Assembly (NCBI GenBank): GCA_020852375.1
Contig: JADZAY010000005.1
Location: forward strand, 19,814-83,813
Length of the DNA stretch: 64,000 nt
Origin: Candidatus Yanofskybacteria bacterium
Lineage (GTDB): Bacteria > Patescibacteriota > Minisyncoccia > 2-02-FULL-40-12 > GWA2-44-9
Direction: 5' to 3'
In this document: positions 10,530 to 51,697 of the stretch, in pieces
Numbering within the stretch: position 1 is the first letter of the stretch
Layout: every line of letters begins with the position of its first letter
Translations under genes and position numbers: made by a program
The notes under the pieces: generated by a model
The model's database searches: none
Told to the model about the DNA's origin: nothing
Seen by the model: the letters and a program-made list of their open reading frames with translations, nothing else

Positions 10530-10560
10530 CACCGCCCCTTGTGGGCGGTTTTTGTTGGGG
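10530..10560 (+). terminator. rho-independent terminator
   Basis: CCGCCCCTTGTGGGCGG followed by TTTTTG. Confidence 0.6.
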
Positions 10561-10607
10561 GTATCGTTGGTGTGCAGTTCTTTGAAAATCACCACAAGGA
10601 GTTCGTC

Positions 10608-11357
10608 ATGACGGCCAAAGGTCTTTTATTCGACGTCACTCGGTGCGCACTTTGTGGTGCGTGCTGGTTAGCCGACAAGGAACGGAACGAGCTTCCCATT
10701 CCCGATGGCGATTTCACCGGTGATCGATTGTCGGATACGACATTCCTCGCCATTGAGCGTCACGGGGCTCGGGGTGTTCGGCATTCCTGCATGCATTGTG
10801 TTCAGCCGACGTGCGCTTCGGTGTGCCCGGTTGCTGCGCTCGAAAAGACTTCGATTGGCGCCGTGGTATACCACCAGGAGCGCTGTATCGGGTGTCGGTA
10901 CTGTGTCGTTGCGTGTCCGTTCTGCATTCCGAAGTACGAGTGGAGCAAGCAGCTTCCGTATGTTCGGAAGTGCGACTTCTGCTACAGCCGCATCGTTGCT
11001 GGAGAGTCTCCGGCATGTGCGGCAGCGTGCCCAACCGGTGCGCTTCTCTACGGTGAGCGGAGTGCGCTTCTGCATATCGCGCATGAGCGCATCGCCGCTG
11101 GCAACGGAACATACGTTGATCGTGTGTATGGGGAGTACGAAGTTGGTGGTACCTCGCTCCTCATTCTGACGGATATCCCACTCGAGGAGTTGGGCTATCC
11201 TACCAACCTTCCCGGTACCCCCATGCCGTCTTTGACGTGGGAGGCGCTCGTAAATGTTCCACGGGTTGTTCTACTCGGTGGGGCGATACTAACCGGACTG
11301 TGGTGGCTCACGAAACGCCGCGAAGAAGTGCATGCGGCTCGGAAGGAGCAGCAATGA
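10608..11357 (+). CDS. 4x[4Fe-4S] ferredoxin-type electron-transfer subunit (HybA/NrfC/PsrB/FdnH-like) with C-terminal TM anchor
   Basis: Four Cys clusters: CALCGAC...CP, CMHCVQPTCASVCP, CIGCRYCVVACP and CDFCYSRIVAGESPACAAACP. C-terminal hydrophobic helix VVLLGGAILTGLWWL. ACAAGGAG RBS. No twin-arginine signal is visible at the N-terminus. Confidence 0.75.
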   Translation: MTAKGLLFDVTRCALCGACWLADKERNELPIPDGDFTGDRLSDTTFLAIERHGARGVRHSCMHCVQPTCASVCPVAALEKTSIGAVVYHQERCIGCRYCVVACPFCIPKYEWSKQLPYVRKCDFCYSRIVAGESPACAAACPTGALLYGERSALLHIAHERIAAGNGTYVDRVYGEYEVGGTSLLILTDIPLEELGYPTNLPGTPMPSLTWEALVNVPRVVLLGGAILTGLWWLTKRREEVHAARKEQQ

Positions 11358-12892
11358 AACGCAGACTCAGCATCGGGTGGCTGTTCCTGGTTACCGTCCT
11401 GGCGGCGGGCCTCTACAGCATGGCCGTGCGCGTGTTCAAGGGGCTTGGTGCGAGTACACATCTGAGCGACCAGTTCCCGTGGGGGCTATGGGTTGGCTTT
11501 GATGTCTTGTGCGGAGTGGCGCTCGCGGCTGGAGCATTCACGCTCAGTGGCGCGGTCTACATTCTGCACCTGGATCGCTACAAGCCGCTGGTTCGGGCAG
11601 CGATCATGACCGGATTCATCGGATACCTTGCGGCGATCGTCGGCCTTCTGTTCGACCTCGGACACCCCTATCGTATCTGGCACCCACTCATCATGTGGAA
11701 TCCGCACTCGGTAATGTTCGAGATCTCGTGGTGCGTGACCCTCTACACAACGGTGCTTGCGGTGGAGTTCAGTGCGTTCGTGTTCGAGCGCCTGCGGATG
11801 ACCTTCGCTGCGCGCGCGGCGCTGGCCATAACGGTCCCACTGGTGATTCTGGGAATCATTCTTTCTACCCTCCACCAGTCGTCGCTTGGCTCGCTGTTCC
11901 TTATCGTGCCGTCGAAGCTGCATCCGCTGTGGTATTCGCCATGGCTCCCGATATTCTTCTTTGCTTCAGCGCTTGCAATCGGATGCGGCATGGTTATCGT
12001 CGAGTCGTTCCTCAGTTCCAAGGCATTCAATATGGAGCTTGAGGTCGACATCCTCTCTAGCCTGGGGCGGGTGCTTGTCGTTGTGCTCGGCGTGTACGGT
12101 CTTGCGCGGGTCATTGATCTGACCGACCGCGGCGTTTGGTACCTGGTTGCAGTTCCCGGCTTCGAACGGTGTATGTTCCTTGCCGAGATTCTCCTTGCTC
12201 CCATTGGTGCGATGGTGCTCATGATGATGCCGAATGCGCGGAAGAACCGCCTCGGGCTCTTCATGGGCGGCCTCATGACGGTCGCCGGGTTCATCTTGAA
12301 TCGCTTCAACGTGAGCATGACAGGTCTCGTCCGCGCTTCGGGAACGAAGTATGTTCCCAGCTGGATGGAGATTTCTGTGACGCTGACGCTTGTTGTGGTA
12401 GCGGTCGCGCTTTTCGCTGTTGCAGCGCGCACACTGCGCATTTTCCCTGATGCCAAACCGTGTTTGGAAGAAGGGCAGACGTGCAAGGATAAGCCGAGCT
12501 GCTGTCTCGTGACGCCTGCGAAGCTGTGGATTCTGGCGATATGGGTTGCGGTGGGTATGCTCATCGTGAACGCCGTACGAGATTTTGCGGCATACCAACC
12601 AGCGGCGGTGCAGCACGAGGCAGTACAACGTGGACCCGCTTCCTATCCCGTGCTTCCGAAGACGCTCACATTTACGCCGTCGGCCGACAGTCCTGGACCG
12701 GTTTCTTTCAGCCATGAGACGCATCATGCGCTTGGGGCCTGCGCGGACTGTCATGCCGGTCGGTTCAGCATTCTACCTCGGGGGACGCACAGCGGAGCGG
12801 GGCGCGACATGCATGCGCCCGAGCGCTGTGGCATGTGTCATGATGGCAAGGCTGTGAGCAATGAATGCACAGCGTGCCACGCTGTTCCATAG
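11354..12892 (+). CDS. NrfD/PsrC/HybB-family polytopic membrane subunit fused to a C-terminal triheme c-type cytochrome domain
   Basis: ATG overlaps the upstream stop (ATGA). About 8-10 TM helices typical of the NrfD family. The C-terminal ~110 aa carry three CxxCH motifs (CADCH, CGMCH, CTACH). Confidence 0.75.
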   Translation: MKRRLSIGWLFLVTVLAAGLYSMAVRVFKGLGASTHLSDQFPWGLWVGFDVLCGVALAAGAFTLSGAVYILHLDRYKPLVRAAIMTGFIGYLAAIVGLLFDLGHPYRIWHPLIMWNPHSVMFEISWCVTLYTTVLAVEFSAFVFERLRMTFAARAALAITVPLVILGIILSTLHQSSLGSLFLIVPSKLHPLWYSPWLPIFFFASALAIGCGMVIVESFLSSKAFNMELEVDILSSLGRVLVVVLGVYGLARVIDLTDRGVWYLVAVPGFERCMFLAEILLAPIGAMVLMMMPNARKNRLGLFMGGLMTVAGFILNRFNVSMTGLVRASGTKYVPSWMEISVTLTLVVVAVALFAVAARTLRIFPDAKPCLEEGQTCKDKPSCCLVTPAKLWILAIWVAVGMLIVNAVRDFAAYQPAAVQHEAVQRGPASYPVLPKTLTFTPSADSPGPVSFSHETHHALGACADCHAGRFSILPRGTHSGAGRDMHAPERCGMCHDGKAVSNECTACHAVP

Positions 12893-13747: not shown

Positions 13748-14254
13748 ATGCTGTTGTTCTCATGGTTCGGGCGGCGCTTCTCATGGAAGAAGGCATTCGT
13801 TGCATTCCTGGGCGCGCTTGTAGTGAGCATTGGTGTCGTGATCGTACGAAATGAGCGCTTGCCGAGCGCCCCAGATGTGAAAGGAGCAACCTATCTCCTT
13901 GATGGCGAGCGCATCACGCTTACCGGTATATATACTTACTTTGGCAATGAGGCTGCTGGCGACTTGAATGGCGATGGGAAGGACGATGTCGCATTTTTGT
14001 TTGTTGCTCAGCCGGGGGGTTCAGGCTCATTCTATTATGTTGCGGTCGCGTTGCGGGATGGCGGTGGATATCGGGGAACGAATGCCGTATTTCTCGGCGA
14101 CCGGATCGCTCCCCAGACGATTGGGATCAAAGATGGAGCGGTTGTGGTGAATTATGCCGACCGTCGCGCAGGCGAGCCCTACTCGGTGCGCCCATCCGTG
14201 GGCATCTCGAAATACTTTCATGTCCGGAATGGATCGCTGATCGAGATCAAGTAA
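13748..14254 (+). CDS. exported/membrane-anchored hypothetical protein
   Basis: N-terminal TM helix plus a Gly/Asp-rich domain. A bidirectional terminator (14255-14290) follows. Confidence 0.45.
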   Translation: MLLFSWFGRRFSWKKAFVAFLGALVVSIGVVIVRNERLPSAPDVKGATYLLDGERITLTGIYTYFGNEAAGDLNGDGKDDVAFLFVAQPGGSGSFYYVAVALRDGGGYRGTNAVFLGDRIAPQTIGIKDGAVVVNYADRRAGEPYSVRPSVGISKYFHVRNGSLIEIK

Positions 14255-14290
14255 AAAGCCGCGAAGAGAGTCTTCGCGGCTGCTGCCGGG

Positions 14291-15604
14291 TCAGTGGCAG
14301 ACGGGGTTTGCAGTGAGCGTTCCGGTTGCGGTGACCAGTGCCGAGCACTGCATGCCTTTCTTCAGGCCTTTCCAGTACTCCAGCGGTGGGTCGGCGAGCT
14401 GATAGCTCCGGCCCTTCTGGTCTGTGAACGTGACGCGCCGCGTCTCGCTTCGCGCCTTTTCACGCTGTCGGGGTGACAGGTCGGGCGTCGGCCACTTCGG
14501 ATCGGTGTCGAAGGCGCCGGCTCGATCCATGCGCAGGTCGGACCATCGCTCGATGTCGTACGTGTGCTTCAGGGCGTAGACCGGGAACGGTTCCATGATG
14601 TCTTCCGTGCAGGGATGCTTGCACGACACGTACCCGTACTGGTTTTCTTGGCAGTCGTGCGTACAGGAGCGCGTGGTGTACGTGTCCTCGCTGCAGTCGT
14701 GCGTGCACGGCATTGTCGAATAGGTCGGCTCAGAGCAGTAATTTTGCCTGAATCGGCCGTTGCCAAGGTTCGTGGTGCCGCAAGCGTACCGGCGGGTGCC
14801 GGTCTGCATGCGGTGGCCAGAGTGGCAGCGGAAGTGTCGGGTCCCCGTTCTCTCTCGATGCCCACCGGGATGGCAGGTGAAGTGGCGGACGCCGACTTTT
14901 TCACGATCGCCTTGGGGGTGACAGCGGACCGGCCGCTCGCCGATCTTGCGCGAGCCGTAGTGGTGGATGGCCTGATACGAACCGGTCTCGCGACCTCCGG
15001 GCGGGACGGTCCAGTCTTCTTCGTGAACCGTGCGCTCTTCCTCGATGTTGATCGTGCGCTCCCAGGAGACGGTCGTGACCGTGAGCTTCGTCGGGTGCGG
15101 GGTCACAAGCCACCAGATGCCGATCATGGCTCCGATGGCGAGGAGCGCGAGGAGCAGCATGTGGACGGTCAGTGCTCGGTTGATGCGGTCCGGATCGGCG
15201 GCGTTGCTAGCGGGGCGTGAAGCGGTCCTCTTCGGCGCCGCTTCCTCGCGCTGGCGTTGCGTGCGCGGGCTCTCGCTCGGCGCAGCTTCGCGGCTCGTGT
15301 ACTCGGTGACCTTCTGCCGTCGGTTCTCGTCCAGCGGGGCGGAACACTGCGGACACGAGGTCTGACCGGCGGCGACGCTGCTTCCGCAGCTATCGCAGAT
15401 GAGGTCGGATCCGGCCTTCGCCGCAGCGATGCGGCTCGGGTCGGTGACGACTCGGGCATCCGAGGGCAGGTAGAACTCGACGTCTTCGGGGCGCGGGGCG
15501 CCGCAGCCGGCGCACGCCATCGCTTCGCCGTCTTGTCCGGGGTGCCCGTAGGGGCAGTCCCACTTCCCGACGAGGATCTCAGAATCCTCAGGTTCGTCGG
15601 TCAT
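14291..15604 (-). CDS. membrane protein with two cytoplasmic zinc ribbons, one TM helix and an extracytoplasmic His/Cys-rich tandem-repeat domain
   Basis: CPYGH...CAGCG and CDSCG...CPQCS; TM helix LLLALLAIGAMIGIWWLV. Repeats RCHPQGDREKVGVRHF / TCHPGGHRERTGTRHF / RCHSGHRMQTGTRRY, then CTHDCSEDTY / CTHDCQENQY / CKHPCTEDIM. An AT-rich promoter region lies upstream (15605-15720). Confidence 0.5.
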   Translation of the reverse strand: MTDEPEDSEILVGKWDCPYGHPGQDGEAMACAGCGAPRPEDVEFYLPSDARVVTDPSRIAAAKAGSDLICDSCGSSVAAGQTSCPQCSAPLDENRRQKVTEYTSREAAPSESPRTQRQREEAAPKRTASRPASNAADPDRINRALTVHMLLLALLAIGAMIGIWWLVTPHPTKLTVTTVSWERTINIEEERTVHEEDWTVPPGGRETGSYQAIHHYGSRKIGERPVRCHPQGDREKVGVRHFTCHPGGHRERTGTRHFRCHSGHRMQTGTRRYACGTTNLGNGRFRQNYCSEPTYSTMPCTHDCSEDTYTTRSCTHDCQENQYGYVSCKHPCTEDIMEPFPVYALKHTYDIERWSDLRMDRAGAFDTDPKWPTPDLSPRQREKARSETRRVTFTDQKGRSYQLADPPLEYWKGLKKGMQCSALVTATGTLTANPVCH

Positions 15605-15720
15605 GGCTTGTTCCTTTCCTGTAAACGAACGATGGAATTATTATATACAAATTGTAGGAAAAGTCAATTATTCGGCACTTCACGCCTTGCTCGCTCGCGG
15701 TTGCGGTGTATGCTTACGCT

Positions 15721-16308
15721 ATGAACAAGAAACTCATTGCGGGAGCAGTTGCACTGCTCGTGGTCGCGGGTGCGGTGTGGTACCTCGGCGGTCGAGGCGG
15801 CGGTGGCGGGGCGACGATGACTCTGCGGTCCTTGATGGCAGCAGGGCGCGCGCAAAAATGCACGTACACATTCTCTGCTGGCGGCGTAACGAGCGCCGGA
15901 ACCGTGTACCTGATGGGCAATCGGATGCGTGGTGACTTCACGACAACGCAGGGTGGCACGACGACCGGTGGGCATATGATCGTCAATGGCGACACCACTT
16001 CATTCTGGACGGACGGTCAGACGCAAGGATTTACGGTGAAGGGTGAGGCATCGGGGGAAGCGGGGAATGCTGTGCGTGATGCGGTAGACCTCGATGCGAA
16101 CACGGCATACAACTGCACGGGGTGGAGCGGCGATGAGCGGCAGTTCACGCTTCCCGTGGGCGTCACCTTTTCCGACTTTTCTTCGATGATGCAGGAGGTT
16201 CAGAAGTCGGCTGGGAATGGAGCTAACCCGCAGTCTGCCTGCGGTGCGTGCGATTCGCTCTCCGGCGACGAGCGAACGCAGTGCCGAGCGGCTCTGCAGT
16301 GTAACTAA
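15721..16308 (+). CDS. secreted hypothetical protein (signal anchor, Gly/Thr-rich, C-terminal Cys cluster)
   Basis: MNKKLIAGAVALLVVAGAVW signal-like N-terminus; 195 aa. Confidence 0.45.
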   Translation: MNKKLIAGAVALLVVAGAVWYLGGRGGGGGATMTLRSLMAAGRAQKCTYTFSAGGVTSAGTVYLMGNRMRGDFTTTQGGTTTGGHMIVNGDTTSFWTDGQTQGFTVKGEASGEAGNAVRDAVDLDANTAYNCTGWSGDERQFTLPVGVTFSDFSSMMQEVQKSAGNGANPQSACGACDSLSGDERTQCRAALQCN

Positions 16309-17186: not shown

Positions 17187-17552
17187 ATGACGCCCACAAC
17201 GCTCAGAACCATTGCCCTCTGCACGGGAGCCGCGCTGATCGCGACGGCGGTGTTCGGATTGTGCGCGATGACCGTTGATGCCATGGGGTCGCACGACATG
17301 CAGTGCGGGGGCATGGCGCTTGCTTCGTTGCTGTGTGAGTCGACCGTTACGCAGACGAATCTGCATTTTATAACGGTCGCGCTTGCGCTGTTTGTCGGGA
17401 TGGTCGTTTGCCTCGCCGCTTTCCATCGAGTGGCGGCGCCCCTCCTTCGCCCGGCATATCAGCGGGAACGTTTCTATTCTCATCTCCCCATGACCGCTCT
17501 GCGGCTTGCACTCGCGCGGGGTGTCTTGCAACCGAAAGTGTTTTCCAACTAG
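17187..17552 (+). CDS. small membrane protein with Cys/Met-rich loop (MQCGGMALASLLCES)
   Basis: 121 aa, 3 TM helices, immediately upstream of the copper cluster. Confidence 0.35.
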   Translation: MTPTTLRTIALCTGAALIATAVFGLCAMTVDAMGSHDMQCGGMALASLLCESTVTQTNLHFITVALALFVGMVVCLAAFHRVAAPLLRPAYQRERFYSHLPMTALRLALARGVLQPKVFSN

Positions 17553-17595
17553 GGCGCGTTGCGCACAGGCGCAGTGGTCGGATAACACTGAAGTC

Positions 17596-18936
17596 ATGGA
17601 ATACGAATATTACATTGGAGGAACTCATTGCAACTCTTGTCAGATCATTCTTGAGCGAGAGATCGGAAAGCTCCCGAATGTCGCTCGGGTCCGCGTCGAT
17701 GCGGGCAGCGGACGTACGCGAATACGGTGGAATGGAGCCCCGGATCTTGAGCGGCTCGCGGCGACCGTGCGGCATGCCGGATATCAGTTCGGGCGCCGCT
17801 CGCGTTCGTGGATAGCGACCGACGGTTCTACCTGGAGTGCGGCGCTGGTCGCGGCGTGTCTCGTCTTCATCGGTTGGATCGCCGTGCGACTCCTGGGCCT
17901 TGATTCGCTCGCTGCGCGCACTGGCACCGGTATTGGTGCGACCGGCGCATTGGTCGCTGGTCTTACCGCTGGCGTTTCGACCTGCATGGCGTTGGTTGGC
18001 GGGCTGGTGCTGGCGTATGCCGCTCGGCATGCACAGAAACATCCGGAAGCGACGACGATCCAGAAGTTCCGTCCCCACCTCTTCTTCAACGCGGGGCGCA
18101 TCCTTGGTTTCGCGTTGTTGGGCGGGATCGTTGGTGCTGTGGGATCGTTGGCGCGACCGACGCCGGTCGTTACCGGTTGGCTTGTCGTGCTTGCGGGTGC
18201 GGCGATGGCGCTTGTTGGACTTTCGTTGACCGGTCTCGTACCGCGACTCTCGACGCTTTCCTTGCCCGGTTGGATCGCGCGACGATTGGGGATCGGATCG
18301 GATGTACGGGAATACAGCCACCGCGGAGCCATGGTGACCGGAGCGCTCACGTTCTTCGTCCCGTGCGGTTTCACGCAAGCGGCGCAGCTCGCCGCATTGG
18401 CGACCGGCAGCTTCGGAGGCGGTGCGCTCCTGATGGCCGCGTTCGCGGTCGGAACCGCGCCGGGTCTTCTGGGGGTTGGCTGGTTGTCATCGGCGGTGCG
18501 CGGCTCGGGTGGGCGCATCTTCTTCGCCGCGGCGGGGATCACTGCATTCGCGCTCGGCGTCTGGAACATCTCGAACGGATGGACCCTGACCGGCATCGTG
18601 TTGGGAGGTCCGTCGACGGCCGCCCCGGTCCGTCCGGGTGAGCGTGTGAGCGTTGCCGAGGTTCGCGATGGAAAGCAGTACGTCGATATGACGCAAGATG
18701 CGTTCGGGTATAGCGTTGACCGCATCGTGGTGAAGCGCGGGATCCCGGTCGTGTGGCGTGTTACATCGGAGAACTCGTACACCTGCGCGAGCTCGTTGAA
18801 TCTTCCCGCGATGAACATCGCGGTGAATCTTCAGCCTGGCCAGAACGTTGTCGAGTTCACCCCTCAAACGACCGGTCGGATGCGGTTCTCCTGCTCGATG
18901 GGCATGTACCGCGGTATCATCGAAGTTGTTGATTAA
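17596..18936 (+). CDS. three-part fusion: N-terminal HMA metal-binding domain, polytopic DsbD_2/CcdA-like permease domain, and C-terminal cupredoxin-like domain
   Basis: HMA motif YYIGGTHCNSCQ. About 8 TM helices with a conserved Cys (FFVPCGFTQAA). The C-terminal about 100 aa end in GRMRFSCSMGMYRGIIEVVD, homologous to the following small protein. Confidence 0.6.
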   Translation: MEYEYYIGGTHCNSCQIILEREIGKLPNVARVRVDAGSGRTRIRWNGAPDLERLAATVRHAGYQFGRRSRSWIATDGSTWSAALVAACLVFIGWIAVRLLGLDSLAARTGTGIGATGALVAGLTAGVSTCMALVGGLVLAYAARHAQKHPEATTIQKFRPHLFFNAGRILGFALLGGIVGAVGSLARPTPVVTGWLVVLAGAAMALVGLSLTGLVPRLSTLSLPGWIARRLGIGSDVREYSHRGAMVTGALTFFVPCGFTQAAQLAALATGSFGGGALLMAAFAVGTAPGLLGVGWLSSAVRGSGGRIFFAAAGITAFALGVWNISNGWTLTGIVLGGPSTAAPVRPGERVSVAEVRDGKQYVDMTQDAFGYSVDRIVVKRGIPVVWRVTSENSYTCASSLNLPAMNIAVNLQPGQNVVEFTPQTTGRMRFSCSMGMYRGIIEVVD

Positions 18937-18947
18937 CTCACTATCCT

Positions 18948-19307
18948 ATGAGTACTGATGAGATCGCTGTGGTCGTCATTGCGACGATCGGTATTGCGGG
19001 CATCGCGTGGTTCTTCTTTGGAAAACGAACTCGCGCGGTTCGCGCCGGGACGGTTATCGATATCGTAGTCGATGGGGGCTACTCACCCGATACGATCACG
19101 GTTCTGGTCGGGAAGCAGACGACGCTTCGGTTCTTCCGAAAAGATCCGTCCGATTGTCTCGAAGAGGTTGTTATTGCCGATCTCAAGATCCGGCGCACGC
19201 TTGCGCTCGGAGAAGTCACTGAGATCACACTTACTCCGCCGCGTGCTGGTACCTACCGCTTTTCATGCGGTATGGGCATGTATCACGGGGCGATCATCGC
19301 ATCATGA
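18948..19307 (+). CDS. membrane-anchored cupredoxin-like domain protein (Cupredoxin_1-type)
   Basis: N-terminal TM helix, then a beta-sandwich-like domain ending [19 protein letters not shown] (FxC..H..M pattern). Its stop overlaps the copA ATG. Confidence 0.55.
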
Positions 19308-21541
19308 GCCAAACGACCAAAACCTTCCCGATCAAAGGGATGCATTGTGCGTCGTGCGTGACCCTGATCGAAGGGGCGCTCCGTGACGTGCACGGGGTTA
19401 GTACCGCGAATGTGAATCTCGCAAACGAGCGCGCGACCGTTACCTATGATCCGGCGCAGGTCACCGATGAGCAGCTGCGTTCGGCCGTTGCGAGTGTCGG
19501 GTATCAGGCGCTCATGAGTGATGAGCTGGCGCATGAAGATGCTGAGCGAGCTAGGAAACGGCGGGAGCTGGTTGCGCTCCGTTTTCGGGCGCTGTTCAGT
19601 CTTGCGCTGGGTGCGGTGATCGTCTGGGGAAGCTTTCCCGGGATCTCCGCCATTGCCCCCGCGCTGCTTCGGAATGCGTGGTTCCAGTTCGCGGTCGCGA
19701 TACCGGTCCAATTCTGGGCGGGATGGCAGTTCTATCGGGCGACGTGGTCGTCGCTTCGGCATCGGAGCGCGAACATGGATACGCTGGTGACCATTGGAAC
19801 GAGCGTCGCATTCATCTATTCGGCGTTCATGACCATTGCCCCGCATCTCGTTCAGCGGCTTGGTATCATGCCGGAACCCTACTTCGACGTTTCAACCGTG
19901 ATCATCGGGCTCATCCTGCTCGGACGCTACTTCGAGGCACGCGCAAAAGCGGGCACATCGGAGGCGATCCGAAAGCTGTTGGGCCTGCAGGCGAAGACCG
20001 CCCGCGTGATCCGTGACGGGCAGGAGATCGATGTTCCGCTTGCCGAGGTTGCGGTAGACGACGTGCTTCGGGTGCGCCCGGGTGAAAAAGTTCCGGTTGA
20101 CGGGGTTATTCTCGAAGGCGCTTCCGCGATCGATGAATCCATGGTGACCGGGGAAAGTATTCCAGCAGATAAAGGTCCCGGAGATGCCGTTATTGGCGCG
20201 ACCGTGAATCGGAACGGTTCATTCACCTTCCGCGCCACGAAGATCGGTTCTGAAACGATGCTTGCGCAGATCGTTCGCCTCGTGCAGGAAGCGCAGGGAA
20301 GCAAGGCACCCATTCAGCGGCTGGCGGATACCGTCTCGTCCTACTTTGTTCCGGTCGTGCTCATGCTTGCGATCGCAACGTTCGCGCTCTGGTATGTCGT
20401 TGGCCCGGAGCCGTCACTACCGTTCGCGACGCTCTCGATGGTCGCGGTGCTTATCATCGCTTGTCCGTGTGCGATGGGATTGGCGACGCCAACGGCGATC
20501 ATGGTGGGGACTGGTCTTGGCGCTGAGCACGGTATCCTCATCAAGGACGCGGAGGCGCTCGAGATCGCCCATACGGTGAACACGGTTGCCTTCGACAAGA
20601 CCGGAACGCTGACCGAAGGGAAGCCGCGCGTTACTCGCGTCGTTGCCCGAGAGGGGCGCGGTGAAGCGGATATTCTTGCGATCGAGTATGCGCTGGAGCG
20701 CTCGTCGAGCCATCCGGTTGCCGCGGCCATCGTCGCAGAGGCGCGTGAGCGCGGGTTAGCGACACCGCCGGAACCGGAATCGTTCGTCGCAGTGCCCGGG
20801 CATGGCGTCCAGGGAGTTGTTCGTGAGATGTCCGTGCGTGCGGGGACTGAGCGCTTTCTTCGAGCGGGCGGCATCGATACTGCGGTGATGCGAGCGGAGA
20901 TCGACCAGCTTATGGACGAGGGAAACACCGTGACCCTTATCGCGTCCGACGGTGAGCTTGTCGGGGTCATCGGTGTTGCGGATACCGAACGGGCAACAGC
21001 TCGTCAGGCGGTGGCGCAGCTTGTTCGGCGGGGCATTGAGGTTGTGATGATCACAGGGGACCATGAACGGGTCGCCCGCTCGGTCGCGACGCGTCTTGGT
21101 ATCACCCGATTCGTCGCGCAGGTGCTTCCCGAGCAGAAGTCGGCACAGGTTGAGGCGCTGCAGGCGGAAGGAAAGCGCGTTGCGATGGTCGGTGATGGTA
21201 TTAACGATGCTCCGGCGCTCGCGGCGGCCGATATCGGGATCGCTATGGCGAGCGGAACGGATGTCGCGATTGAAGCTGCGGATATCACGCTGGTCAGCAA
21301 GAATCTCGGTGCAATCGCGGTCGCACTGGACTTGTCGCGGCGAACCCTCCGGACGATCCGCATGAACCTTGTGTGGGCGTTTGGCTACAACATCGTTCTG
21401 ATCCCGGTTGCGATGGGAGCGTTGTATCCCGTCTGGGGAGTGCTCTTGAATCCAATGCTGGCATCCGCCGCGATGGCGTTCAGTTCGATCTCGGTCGTGC
21501 TCAACTCGCTCCTGCTCAAGCGGTGGCATGTGAGGGTGTAG
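19304..21541 (+). CDS. copA: copper-translocating P1B-type ATPase
   Basis: N-terminal HMA (GMHCASCV), TM CPC motif ([10 protein letters not shown]), DKTGTLT phosphorylation site, GDGINDAP hinge; 745 aa. Confidence 0.9.
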
Positions 21542-41668: not shown

Positions 41669-41822
41669 TCGCCTTCGGTCTGCGCCACTCCGTCGAGCGT
41701 CGCAGCCTCGGGGCCGGGCCTCGCGGCAGTGACCGCTATCACTGCATCGCTCCGGCCGTTCGATTCCCGTATAGCACTGTTCGATACTAAAACAGCGCCC
41801 ACAGGGGCGCAATTTTAGTATG

Positions 41823-41893
41823 AGCGGGGTACGGGAATCGAACCCGTGCGTCGACCTTGGAAGGGTCGCGTCATACCATTAGACCAACCCCGC
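41823..41893 (-). tRNA. tRNA-Gly(TCC)
   Basis: The reverse complement reads GCGGGGTTGGTCTAATGGTATGACGCGACCCTTCCAAGGTCGACGCACGGGTTCGATTCCCGTACCCCGCT. The anticodon loop CUUCCAA gives UCC. Near-identical to bacterial tRNA-Gly(UCC) consensus. Confidence 0.8.
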
Positions 41894-44994: not shown

Positions 44995-45077
44995 CGGGCC
45001 GCCGAGAATCGAACTCGGTCTCCGTCGCCACAGCGCCTGGGAATGCGAACTCAACGCATTCCCGCTCAATCCCAATG
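44995..45077 (-). pseudogene. tRNA-like 3' fragment with encoded CCA (anticodon-like hairpin, variable arm, T-arm, acceptor 3' strand) and no matching 5' acceptor strand in cis
   Basis: The reverse complement ends ...GGGAATGCGTTGAGTTCGCATTCCC...GACCGAGTTCGATTCTCGGCGGCCCGACCA. The complementary 5' acceptor CGGGCCG with a D-arm (GTATACCGGTAGTAC) is found only at 45175-45198, on the other side of tRNA-Pro. Confidence 0.3.
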
Positions 45078-45148
45078 TCGGGGTGCCCAGAATCGAACTG
45101 GGTCTACCTGTACCCAAAACAGGCGTACTACCGGTATACGACACCCCG
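45078..45148 (-). tRNA. tRNA-Pro(TGG)
   Basis: The reverse complement reads CGGGGTGTCGTATACCGGTAGTACGCCTGTTTTGGGTACAGGTAGACCCAGTTCGATTCTGGGCACCCCGA. Anticodon stem CCUGU/ACAGG and loop UUUGGGU give UGG. Confidence 0.7.
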
Positions 45149-45267: not shown

Positions 45268-45339
45268 GGCCTCATAGTTCAATGGATAGAACAGGAGACT
45301 TCTAAGCTCTTGATCCAGGTTCGATTCCTGGTGAGGCCA
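45268..45339 (+). tRNA. tRNA-Arg(TCT)
   Basis: GGCCTCATAGTTCAATGGATAGAACAGGAGACTTCTAAGCTCTTGATCCAGGTTCGATTCCTGGTGAGGCCA. The anticodon loop CUUCUAA gives UCU. Acceptor and T-arm pair perfectly. Confidence 0.75.
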
Positions 45340-45353
45340 CTGAGGAAAAGCGC

Positions 45354-51618: not shown

Positions 51619-51625
51619 GTATATG

Positions 51626-51697
51626 GGGACCTAGCGGGTATCGATCCCGCGACCGCGCTTCCACAGAGCGCTGTGATACCATTTCACCATAGGTCCC
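51626..51697 (-). tRNA. tRNA-His(GTG) with genomically encoded G-1
   Basis: The reverse complement reads G-GGGACCTATGGTGAAATGGTATCACAGCGCTCTGTGGAAGCGCGGTCGCGGGATCGATACCCGCTAGGTCCC-C. The anticodon loop CUGUGGA gives GUG. An extra 5' G pairs with discriminator C73. Confidence 0.75.

Follow-up and report, generated by a model that had tools for sequence, protein, structure and literature searches.

A membrane protein of a large, unnamed bacterial family with a predicted giant beta-hairpin ectodomain and Cys/His units in both arms

A gene within the window (the whole stretch of DNA analyzed, 64,000 nucleotides of a Candidatus Yanofskybacteria contig) encodes a protein which, on sequence comparison, belongs to a large, unnamed family distributed across many phyla. 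The explanation judged best, with a probability slightly above even, is an N-in/C-out membrane protein with a length-tunable giant hairpin, in which Cys/His rungs act as structural staples. It is proposed that the stand-alone gene gives rise to a single-pass membrane protein with cytoplasmic RanBP2-type fingers and an ectodomain hairpin, which in the family is lengthened in quantal steps, each adding a ∼15-aa unit to arm 2 and a ∼14-aa unit to arm 3. In the small clade that includes the window protein, each rung would place Cys(A), His(A) and His/Asp(A+4/5) opposite Cys-x-His-x-Cys-x-Glu(B), and these clusters would staple together both arms of a ribbon that is otherwise polar and exposed, most likely through one Zn/Cu-type thiolate-imidazole site per rung, possibly with an ancestral Cys(A)-Cys(B) disulfide. 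The arrays would then brace an envelope rod of tunable length, as structural elements rather than as a metal-sensing domain in their own right, and the rigidity of the rod might depend on metal or redox state. If this model holds, a widespread family named in no database possesses an ectodomain architecture without solved precedent, a single giant beta-hairpin that evolves in discrete coupled units. The features of the gene and its product are listed in Table 1.

Table 1. Positions of the gene, its predicted signals and the segments of its product in the window
Feature	Position	Strand	Basis or remarks
Complete gene, 437 codons + stop	14291..15604	-	ATG start; ORF list, GC3 0.81
Sigma-70-like promoter (predicted), TTGACT-16-TATAAT	15640..15667	-	36 nt 5′ of ATG
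Zinc finger 1 (aa 13-38), GKWDC17PYGH21...C31AGC34GAPR	15491..15568	-	RanBP2-type, second Cys lost
Zinc finger 2 (aa 66-91), C70xxC73...C84xxC87	15332..15409	-	4 Cys 100% conserved in 173 proteins
Single TM helix (aa ∼145-167)	15104..15172	-	Kyte-Doolittle up to 2.48; AF2 helix 138-167
Strand beta1 and W198-x2-P201-x-GG turn (aa 170-204), compact base	14993..15097	-	AF2 E170-197, pLDDT >90
Hairpin arm 2 (aa 205-279)	14768..14992	-	Covariation ladder with arm 3; AF2 E205-226, E264-279
Three A units, arm 2 (aa 227-273), C-H-[PS]-x1-2-[GS]-[HD]-R...G; Cys 228, 244, 260	14786..14926	-	Shuffle z=12.0
L280-G-N-G283 beta-turn, hairpin tip	14756..14767	-	G281 99%, N282 and G283 100% conserved
Hairpin arm 3 (aa 284-364; 284 to about 352 in the overall model), including C290	14513..14755	-	Covariation; AF2 E284-298, E332-364
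Three B units, arm 3 (aa 300-341), C-x-H-x-C-x-E-[DN]; Cys 300/304, 314/318, 328/332	14582..14707	-	Shuffle z=13.4
C-terminal base (aa 365-437): loop, strand 380-395, small beta subdomain	14294..14512	-	AF2 pLDDT >90
Intrinsic-terminator-like hairpin, then T-run	14257..14281	-	11 bp stem, 7 GC pairs; 10 nt past stop

The Family and Its Distribution

The window protein has the same sequence as NCBI MCC6934230.1, which is annotated as a 'hypothetical protein' and comes from a Ca. Yanofskybacteria MAG. An initial homolog search with this sequence returned 31 homologs, whereas a query of the repeat region alone (aa 217-354) retrieved no sequence, not even the parent protein. A profile search recovered 4,661 family representatives at E ≤ 1e-3, of which 1,287 remained at E ≤ 1e-30; nearly all are full-length matches of 345-450 aa. 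The family amounts to 1,287 or more clusters at 50% identity, from monoderm as well as diderm phyla. A single peptide pattern matches 194 species genomes, which span Chloroflexota, Acidobacteriota, Planctomycetota, Gemmatimonadota, Bacteroidota, Clostridia, Vulcanimicrobiota, and CPR. The family alignment comprises 173 sequences; alignments A1 and A2 were utilized for closer comparison, and the narrower alignment A4 was the query for the family genome scan. Similarity of the window protein to the family extends over its full length and includes the invariant W181-x-R, W198-x2-P201, L-G-N-G, Y295, W354, W371, and W411, and the spacing between family anchor residues is fixed in the 173-sequence alignment. 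The common layout is a tandem of RanBP2-type zinc fingers, a TM segment and an LGNG hairpin.

Searches of Pfam, NCBIfam, PHROGs, PADLOC, and PDB sequences with the window protein yielded only zinc-ribbon or low-complexity matches below threshold, and the same searches with family members likewise remained below threshold apart from the N-terminal zinc fingers. Matches to PHROGs (phage) and PADLOC (anti-phage defence) profiles were at chance level (E about 0.009). No entry in Pfam, NCBIfam, PHROG, PADLOC, PDB, or BFVD covers the ectodomain and all family representatives are unnamed, in agreement with the initial annotation, which had been unable to offer a family name. A description of the family was not found in literature on RanBP2 fingers in bacteria, on long beta-hairpins combined with zinc ribbons, or on Patescibacteria. 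The gene has no paralog within the window. Gene neighborhoods were examined by hand at 10 loci and, at 80 genome loci, by clustering all surrounding ORFs against each other, which detected no conserved neighbor gene beyond lineage-level synteny (maximum 9/80 loci).

The Gene and Its Predicted Transcription Signals

Codon-position GC of the minus-strand ORF (0.61/0.54/0.81) is coding-like, and the ORF has thousands of full-length homologs together with its own predicted promoter and terminator; the gene can therefore be taken as real. Two overlapping plus-strand ORFs, which it had been suggested might prove to be the genuine genes, show codon-position GC values that mirror those of the minus-strand gene (0.81/0.52/0.58 for 14564-15220 and 0.70/0.56/0.60 for 15257-15724), and the homolog search found no relatives of either. 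The predicted promoter, called by consensus match only, agrees at 11/12 consensus positions and is the sole match in the region, where 0.2 would be expected from shuffles. Together with the predicted terminator it implies a monocistronic unit, the adjoining genes being located on the other strand.

Zinc-Finger Head and Membrane Topology

Two RanBP2-type zinc fingers make up the cytoplasmic head, in which the window protein has Cys at 17, 31, 34, 70, 73, 84, and 87. W15, C17, C31, C34, and R38 of finger 1 are invariant in alignments A1 and A2, and this finger is modeled by AF2 with a pLDDT of about 96. It has the form C17-x3-H21...C31-x2-C34, the second Cys being absent from the window protein and its relatives P0002 and P0003, whereas all eight finger Cys are kept in P0004 and in 118/174 family proteins. 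The description of two CxxC...CxxC ribbons in the initial annotation is therefore accurate for the second ribbon and slightly wrong for the first. RanBP2-type (NZF) fingers (PF00641) and the double zinc ribbon (PF12773) have in common the pattern W-x-C-x2-C-x3-[NG]-x6-C-x2-C, which is present twice here, although in the window protein finger 1 has lost Cys-2 and finger 2 its Trp. Its own zinc-ribbon/DZR matches in Pfam reach 16-17 bits against cut-offs of 25-27, with no match to PF00641, but PF00641 is matched by 14/29 aligned homologs (best E=4.8e-14), and the family profile detects the RanBP2/Nup358 zinc fingers in the PDB at E=8.9e-15 as well as fingers of Nup153, RBM10, TRABID, and ZRANB2. 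Judged from these matches, the fingers of the window protein are homologous to PF00641 but divergent. Known RanBP2-type fingers are soluble modules of eukaryotes with ubiquitin, RNA or Ran as their ligands, whereas here bona fide members constitute the conserved head of a bacterial membrane protein family. No HMA/CopZ-type copper domain (PF00403) was matched by the window protein. The sequence M29-A-C-A-G-C34, considered as a copper motif, was rejected: it forms the second knuckle of finger 1, and its Cys are family-invariant while its Met is not.

Nearly all family members have a TM segment. In the window protein it is the sole hydrophobic stretch and is flanked on its N-terminal side by a K/R cluster, implying an N-in, C-out (type-II) orientation and supporting the original reading of a single TM helix with a cytoplasmic N-terminus and an outside domain. 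The same layout of a cytoplasmic Cys4 zinc module, one TM segment and an ectodomain is found in TcaA (NF053815) and in zinc-binding anti-sigma factors of the RsgI/ZAS type, but the ectodomains are unrelated to that described here; the match to TcaA is at chance level (E=0.67) and confined to the zinc ribbon part.

Outside the membrane, the compact base includes two segments, with conserved W181, R183, W198, and P201 in aa 170-204, which covaries with aa 348-367, and conserved W371, R381, and W411 in the C-terminal part (173-sequence alignment). C420 and C436, a pair located in the C-terminal base, occur together in the four proteins of the Cys/His clade only.

A Predicted Giant Hairpin That Lengthens in Coupled Units

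The AF2 models indicate that the ectodomain consists of this base and one giant antiparallel beta-hairpin with LGNG at its tip, and covariation agrees. Among the 40 strongest covarying pairs between arms 2 and 3, 38 fall on one antidiagonal (a+b=-3..+3) that extends between 3 and 44 residues away from the turn, and LGNG forms the turn between the arms in both AF2 models (the window protein and P0163, a canonical three-unit member). The P0163 model has unbroken strands at 189-261 and 266-347 around the GNG turn (pLDDT 63-98), which agrees with pairing of arms 2 and 3 over their full length. For the window protein pLDDT exceeds 90 except in the two extra units of each arm, where it falls below 50 (aa 229-262 and 302-327). 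A six-strand meander, in which segments A and B would be the tips of two separate hairpins, was rejected because the Cys pairs (-28,+27) and (-33,+30), as well as the covariation ladder, need full-length pairing of the two arms. At ∼3.3 Å per residue, the hairpin would measure about 14 nm in one-unit members and about 25 nm in the window protein. We know of no solved precedent for a free-standing two-stranded ribbon of ∼25 nm, and the real state may be oligomeric. In fold searches, the window model matched nothing in PDB and BFVD at E ≤ 0.001, and the P0163 model gave only weak long-hairpin matches in the PDB (Foldseek, E 0.005-0.03, TM-score ≤0.13).

Inter-anchor distances are fixed throughout the family except in segments 215-269 (A) and 295-341 (B). 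The lengths of these segments (A, B) are (23,19) in 154 proteins, (36-39,31-33) in 15 and (49-55,43-47) in four; they covary (r=0.965), changing by about 15 and 14 residues at a time, which corresponds to zero to three units. Values of (55, 47) place the window protein in class 3, among the rare members with three units. Its arm-2 repeats at aa 227-273 read RCHPQGDREKVGVRHF / TCHPGGHRERTGTRHF / RCHSGHRMQTGTRRY and its arm-3 repeats at aa 300-341 CTHDCSEDTYTTRS / CTHDCQENQYGYVS / CKHPCTEDIMEPFP, representing Cys/His versions of the ∼15-aa A unit of the family (canonical DHYETKTRTVSEQVF) and of its ∼14-aa B unit (canonical xEPVYRxxxxxxY), respectively. P0163, P0114, and P0161 show tandem units of the canonical form. 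The best three-copy tandem scores of the window protein (z=12.0 at period 16 and z=13.4 at period 14) were reached by 0/5000 shuffles, so that the three RCH-type and three CxHxC-type repeats reported initially are far beyond chance. They had, however, been taken for two separate sets of knuckles in the outside domain; they are better described as both arms of a single hairpin extension module, which is found throughout the large family, there without Cys or His. No relevant tandem repeat was found at the DNA level in the gene, suggesting that the repeat copies are old.

Cys/His Rungs: Metal or Disulfide

In the register measured by covariation (offset a+b = -2..+2), each RCH unit faces one CxHxC unit, bringing together three Cys and two to three His (plus Asp/Glu) on each rung. 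Turn offsets of C260/C304 (+2), H264/C300 (+2), C244/C318 (0), H249/C314 (+1), C228/C332 (-2), and D233/C328 (-1) place all six pairs inside that register, which had to be extrapolated to the two outer units from relatives that have one unit. All units of the four clade proteins (P0001-P0004) keep the Cys/His motif, at identities as low as 42%; the clade consists of these four sequences only, the sole proteins among 5.8 billion with the Cys/His version of the units. The window protein is the most elaborate case in the family, each of its three units having a Cys3His2-3 rung. Elsewhere in the family Cys are strictly paired at equivalent rung positions. C275 and C290 co-occur (78 proteins with both, 91 with neither, four mixed; p=2e-44), as do Cys at -18 and +18 from the turn (13 both, 173 neither, none mixed), and the Cys counts of A versus B are (0,0) in 152 proteins, (1,1) in 10, (2,2) in four, (2,4) in three and (3,6) in one. 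These paired Cys resemble ordinary disulfides. His is enriched beside a rung Cys elsewhere in the family (5/13 versus 4/173, p=8e-5).

Given this pairing, the clusters can be read as metal-thiolate and/or disulfide staples, and the three of them probably clamp the hairpin through metal or disulfide bonds. Ligands at i and i+2 combined with a cross-strand ligand constitute the classical geometry of a metal site in a beta-sheet, as exemplified by His94, His96, and His119 of carbonic anhydrase II, and by analogy the candidate ligands of the rungs would likewise lie on alternate residues of neighboring strands. In ideal beta geometry a His that directly follows Cys(A) points to the opposite face from that Cys, and extracytoplasmic Cys are usually oxidized. 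To our knowledge, no protein with unit-wise repeated Cys3His2 clusters along a ribbon has been described. Metal binding by the His/Cys arrays, as suggested in the initial annotation, remains plausible and is somewhat strengthened by the ligands that facing units would supply, but it cannot be the function of the family, as Cys/His are absent from more than 97% of its members. In a search for c-type cytochrome motifs, no CxxCH, CxxxCH, or CxxxxCH was found, the CTHDC and CKHPC sequences being followed by S, Q, or T.

Alternative Explanations

The strict cross-arm pairing of Cys (C275/C290, -18/+18, and A/B counts of (1,1) and (2,2)) makes a ladder composed of disulfides only, in which all ectodomain Cys rivet the ribbon and the His are incidental, a serious alternative, although we consider it unlikely overall. 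C420 and C436 were gained together, the Cys counts of P0002-P0004 are even (10, 10, and 8), and a CcdA-like DsbD_2 protein encoded nearby suggests thiol redox traffic in this envelope. However, the window protein ectodomain contains 13 Cys, an odd number, and with three Cys per rung, cross-arm disulfides cannot satisfy all of them; the third (B1) Cys of successive units lie 14 residues (∼46 Å) apart on the same strand, so that they could not pair with each other in a straight monomeric ribbon. His is invariant in the C-H motif and in the C-x-H-x-C motif even at an overall identity of 42%, and this, together with its enrichment beside rung Cys, also argues against an incidental role. Somewhat less probable again, but compatible with the favored model rather than exclusive of it, is an oligomeric tube, in which the hairpins of several protomers would assemble into a long beta-barrel like those of pore-state beta-pore-forming toxins and phage tail knobs, with the third Cys and the His making inter-subunit links. 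A lone two-stranded ribbon of 14-25 nm would be unlikely, a Val/Ile/Tyr stripe runs along one face of the arms, some covarying pairs of the base do not fit a flat monomeric sheet, and the only solved look-alikes of the P0163 model are the lysenin (5ec5), aerolysin, epsilon-toxin, and anthrax PA pores and tail proteins of phi29 (6qz9), Andhra, and P68, which possess very long, Thr/Ser/charge-rich antiparallel hairpins, as here. None of these matches reaches E ≤ 0.001, the aerolysin/lysenin type included (E ≥ 0.005). The known hairpins belong to secreted or virion proteins and are confined to oligomeric barrels; those of the toxins have a tip that is amphipathic and spans the membrane. This protein, by contrast, is anchored by an N-terminal TM segment and its tip is polar, with no membrane-spanning amphipathic pattern.

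It was also proposed that the arrays are an extracytoplasmic module for binding or sensing Cu, Zn, or Ni, working with the products of the copper genes encoded on the other strand, namely an HMA-DsbD_2-cupredoxin ORF (17506-18936) and CopA, a P1B-type ATPase (19265-21541). The reported distance of about 2 kb is correct (1.9 and 3.7 kb from the gene start, respectively), and the ligand-rich rungs, a similar location of the P0002 gene, the position of the P0003 gene 1 kb from a Cation_efflux/ZT_dimer (CDF) metal exporter and the lack of a metal gene within 5-6 kb in six out of six distant Cys-free homologs are all in line with such a role. Metal exporters co-localize with two of three independent Cys/His-clade loci versus 0/6 Cys-free loci (p=0.08). 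The functional link is not supported, however: the copper neighborhood recurs only in the close relative P0002, not in P0003 or P0004, and synteny between the P0002 locus and that of the window makes the two a single observation. Within 4-8 kb of P0004 there is no transition-metal gene, the metals handled differ between the two associated transporters, and several unrelated genes (including those for a 200-aa protein and MsrB) lie between the gene and the copper genes, from which it is further set apart by its orientation and its own predicted transcription signals. With no partner gene, no neighbor conserved in 80 loci and no output domain besides zinc fingers common to about 1,300 Cys-free relatives, a sensing unit is not supported, and we regard the copper/metal module as improbable. 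A spurious ORF, or the repeat region of a known anti-sigma factor or adhesin, can be set aside with near certainty. Long ORFs occur on both strands of the high-GC DNA here, and one family member has a faint NCBIfam anti-sigma match (E=0.004), but the homologs and codon-position GC described above already refute the former, and the ZAS motif (HxxxCxxC) is absent from the window protein. Annotated neighbors include no sigma-factor domain, no sigma-factor gene adjoins any of the 10 loci examined by hand or recurs at the 80 further loci, and no adhesin or other Pfam domain was found. In place of 'hypothetical protein', the gene can now be annotated with a defined architecture and without the unsupported link to copper genes.

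Possible Roles in the Envelope

As a guess, the job of the family might be that of an envelope-spanning spacer, tether or probe, with the conserved zinc fingers holding a partner. A bolder proposal, to which we attach only a low probability, is a new envelope structure, a membrane-anchored beta-ribbon rod or oligomeric tube built in ∼5 nm steps that would serve as a ruler, tether or conduit and be linked to a cytoplasmic partner via its RanBP2-type fingers. In the Cys/His clade the rungs would have turned into metal-thiolate sites, making the rigidity or assembly of the rod responsive to metal or redox state, as a mechanical switch. If true, such a switch would have no known counterpart. The family may thus offer a natural system in which to examine the possible bacterial use of beta-rods as envelope rulers, and the stability of an exposed two-stranded ribbon with polar/Tyr, disulfide or Cys/His rungs. 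The single-layer beta-sheet of Borrelia OspA is solvent-exposed, rich in Thr, Lys, Glu, and Tyr and devoid of a hydrophobic core, like the hairpin described here, although unlike the latter it is short and capped by globular domains.

Gene and family

The window protein is the product of a real gene, as the initial annotation held: the codon-position GC of its ORF is coding-like (0.61/0.54/0.81), and the pattern is mirrored in the overlapping + strand ORFs, 14564-15220 and 15257-15724, neither of which gave homologs in a homolog search. The identical protein is deposited at NCBI as MCC6934230.1 ('hypothetical protein'), the source MAG carrying the label Candidatus Yanofskybacteria. Since it has its own predicted promoter and a hairpin/T-run, and the genes on both sides lie on the opposite strand, the gene constitutes a self-contained unit. 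Its GC3 is 0.81, versus 0.66-0.70 in copA, msrB, dut, and nrfD of the same window.

Features of the window
Feature	Position	Strand	Remarks
Window gene	14291..15604	-	ORF, 437 aa, ATG start
First zinc knuckle	15491-15568 (aa 17-21)	-	C-P-Y-G-H in place of C-x-x-C-G
Predicted promoter, sigma-70-like	36 nt upstream of ATG		TTGACT-16-TATAAT, 11/12 consensus matches
GC-rich hairpin, then T-run	10 nt past stop codon of window gene
HMA-DsbD_2-cupredoxin ORF	17506-18936	+	single 476-aa ORF, domain annotation
CopA-type P1B ATPase	19265-21541	+	adjoins HMA-DsbD_2-cupredoxin ORF
tRNA Gly-TCC	41822-41893
tRNA Pro-TGG	45077-45148
tRNA Arg-TCT	45268-45340
tRNA His-GTG	51625-51696

The described elements are all found in the sequence, namely N-terminal Cys residues (17, 31, 34, 70, 73, 84, and 87), a single hydrophobic helix (∼145-167) flanked N-terminally by K/R residues, three 16-aa 'RCH' repeats (residues 227-273) and three 14-aa 'CxHxC' repeats (residues 300-341). 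Both arrays stand well clear of shuffled sequences (z = 12.0 and 13.4, respectively; 0/5000 shuffles equalled the observed score). The proposed double zinc ribbon requires amendment, in that Cys-rich fingers are present but finger 1 lacks its second Cys (C17-P-Y-G-H21). This knuckle is common to the window protein and its relatives P0002 and P0003, while P0004 retains CPYCG; finger 1 of the window protein is either Cys3His or degenerate.

A word-indexed search recovered 30 homologs, every one full-length, with identities to the window protein of 76% (P0002), 53% (P0003), 42% (P0004), and 25-33% for the remainder. A 138-aa query comprising the repeat region only matched nothing in this search, its parent protein included, and word-indexed negatives are therefore unreliable for short, compositionally biased queries. 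An exhaustive profile search returned 4,661 representatives at E≤1e-3 (1,287 at E≤1e-30), nearly all of 345-450 aa and matching end to end. The peptide pattern LGNG[YF]FE[DE][IV] alone recovered 194 species genomes, with matches in Chloroflexota, Acidobacteriota, Planctomycetota, Gemmatimonadota, Bacteroidota, Clostridia, and Vulcanimicrobiota; Patescibacteria also hold members. Two paralogs occur in one genome in a Chloroflexota MAG (L013/L027) and in a Thermoanaerobaculia MAG (L031/L037), and the locus of P0017 (L005), unlike the others, has mobile-element-type surroundings (HNH endonuclease, DUF1643, and a TnpB/Cas12f-like protein).

Two zinc fingers of the RanBP2 type form the head of family members, the family profile matching those of RanBP2/Nup358 (E=8.9e-15) and likewise those of Nup153, RBM10, TRABID, and ZRANB2. 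The same profile found no PDB match for the ectodomain, and Pfam, NCBIfam, PHROGs, and PADLOC recognized no region other than the N-terminal fingers. Members are named only 'hypothetical' or 'zinc ribbon/zinc finger protein' at source and no paper describing them was found in the literature searched; the family is new and unnamed, in keeping with the initial failure to assign a name.

Hairpin architecture of the ectodomain

The ectodomain is one giant hairpin built of coupled, quantal units. Among 173 family proteins (window protein numbering), anchor distances are fixed at 181-201 (21 residues), 201-215 (15), 269-281 (13), 281-295 (15), 341-354 (14), 354-371 (18), and 371-411 (41), and only segments A (215-269) and B (295-341) vary in length. 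These covary stepwise (r=0.965): 154 proteins have one unit (A and B lengths of 23 and 19), 15 have two (36-39 and 31-33) and four have three (49-55 and 43-47); shorter 'zero-unit' members exist too. In P0163, a three-unit homolog, the canonical tandem units are DHYETKTRTVSEQVF (three copies, A side) and xEPVYRxxxxxxY (three to four copies, B side).

In an APC-corrected mutual information analysis (Neff ∼158), 38 of the 40 top A-side by B-side pairs fall on one antidiagonal, a+b = -3 to +3 (a and b being offsets from G281), spanning 3 to 44 residues from the turn. Residues 205-279 and 284 to ∼352 therefore form one continuous antiparallel hairpin with an L-G-N-G tip, the turn of which is nearly invariant (G281 99%, N282 and G283 100%). 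Covariation also links the end of arm 3 both to beta1 (179-194) and to strand 376-380, which together are read as a compact base. The AlphaFold2 model of the window protein (29-sequence alignment) has a mean pLDDT of 83 and exceeds 90 across 298 residues, falling below 50 precisely at the 'extra' units (229-262 and 302-327). An independent model of P0163 has continuous strands (189-261 and 266-347) flanking the GNG turn, at pLDDT 63-98.

At ∼3.3 Å per residue the hairpin would measure ∼14 nm in one-unit members and ∼25 nm in the window protein, or ∼5 nm per unit. No significant structural match was found for the window model (PDB, BFVD) or the P0163 model (PDB), the sole resemblances, to pore-state beta-toxins and phage tail knobs (E 0.005-0.03, TM-score ≤0.13), being generic long-hairpin likeness. 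Our guess is that family members form envelope rods or tethers of calibrated length, which may be oligomeric.

Cys/His rungs: disulfide or metal

The His/Cys repeats are the form that the A and B units take in the window clade, so that the RCH and CxHxC arrays face each other; both arrays are real, but the two repeat types of the initial annotation are the facing arms of one structural module. In the innermost unit C260 (-21) lies across from C304 (+23) and H264 (-17) from C300 (+19), both at a+b = +2; the corresponding pairs are C244/C318 (0) and H249/C314 (+1) in the middle unit and C228/C332 (-2) and D233/C328 (-1) in the outermost. All six offsets fall within the measured covariation register, and arm 2 therefore contributes C-H-x(2-3)-[H/D] to each rung, arm 3 contributing C-x-H-x-C-x-E-[D/N]. 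The CxHxC residues (i, i+2, i+4) are predicted to share one sheet face. All four clade proteins keep these rung residues in each of their units, even at 42% identity, and they are the only clade members among the 5.8 billion clusters searched. With 13 ectodomain Cys residues the window protein has the maximum of 174 family proteins, most of which carry 0-2.

Elsewhere in the family Cys residues occur strictly in cross-arm pairs. C275 and C290 are both present in 78 proteins, both absent in 91 and mixed in four (p=2e-44), Cys at -18/+18 shows 13 both, 173 neither, and none mixed, and counts per segment (A,B) are (1,1) in 10 proteins and (2,2) in four. Such pairs look like disulfide rungs, which provides independent confirmation that the ectodomain is extracytoplasmic, and they favor the view that the Cys residues of the window clade are likewise all structural disulfides. 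We consider this the less likely reading, since cross-arm disulfides cannot use all three Cys of a rung, the third Cys of neighboring units lying 14 residues apart on the same strand. The odd Cys total of the window protein, the invariant His in both motifs of the clade and the enrichment of His beside rung Cys in distant members (5/13 vs. 4/173, p=8e-5) also argue for a metal-thiolate-imidazole staple over disulfides only. One such staple per rung, perhaps together with the ancestral disulfide, is a tentative assignment to which we give nearly even weight; the Cys/His clusters would then staple the ribbon, probably via metal ions. Of the metal binding or sensing first suggested, binding by these residues is plausible and sensing is not supported.

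Genomic context

The copper genes said to lie nearby are real, but their link to the window gene is not supported: the arrangement is common only to the syntenic P0002 locus, and no operon-level link was found. P0003 has an adjacent glycosyltransferase and a CDF exporter at 1 kb, and P0004 has unrelated neighbors, with MgtC 3.5 kb away. No metal genes were found near six Cys-free homologs, and clustering of ORFs around 80 genome loci yielded no conserved partner gene. Any clade-specific tendency toward metal exporters is at most weak (2/3 independent clade loci vs. 0/6 Cys-free loci, p=0.08).

DsbD_2 is a CcdA-like thiol-reductant transporter domain. In L001, the locus of a close relative, HMA-DsbD_2 (446 aa) and cupredoxin (119 aa) are two genes, so that the 476-aa ORF of the window may have arisen by fusion or may reflect a missed stop/start. 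Neither of the genes flanking the window gene, at 13748-14254 (+, 168 aa) and 15706-16308 (+, 200 aa), matches a Pfam family; the P0002 locus has ORFs of comparable length (168 and 197 aa) at both flanking positions. The longer of the two window proteins opens with a membrane/signal segment and has a Cys-rich C-terminal tail (CGACDSLSGDERTQCRAALQC).

Besides the four tRNA genes, no Rfam family reached gathering score within the window. The span 10539-12892 (+) encodes an NrfC-like 4Fe-4S dicluster protein and, after it, an NrfD-type membrane subunit whose C-terminal domain is a cytochrome c7. Neither this respiratory-type module nor the ∼60% GC would be expected in a MAG that carries the label Candidatus Yanofskybacteria (Patescibacteria), and its label or its binning may be questionable.
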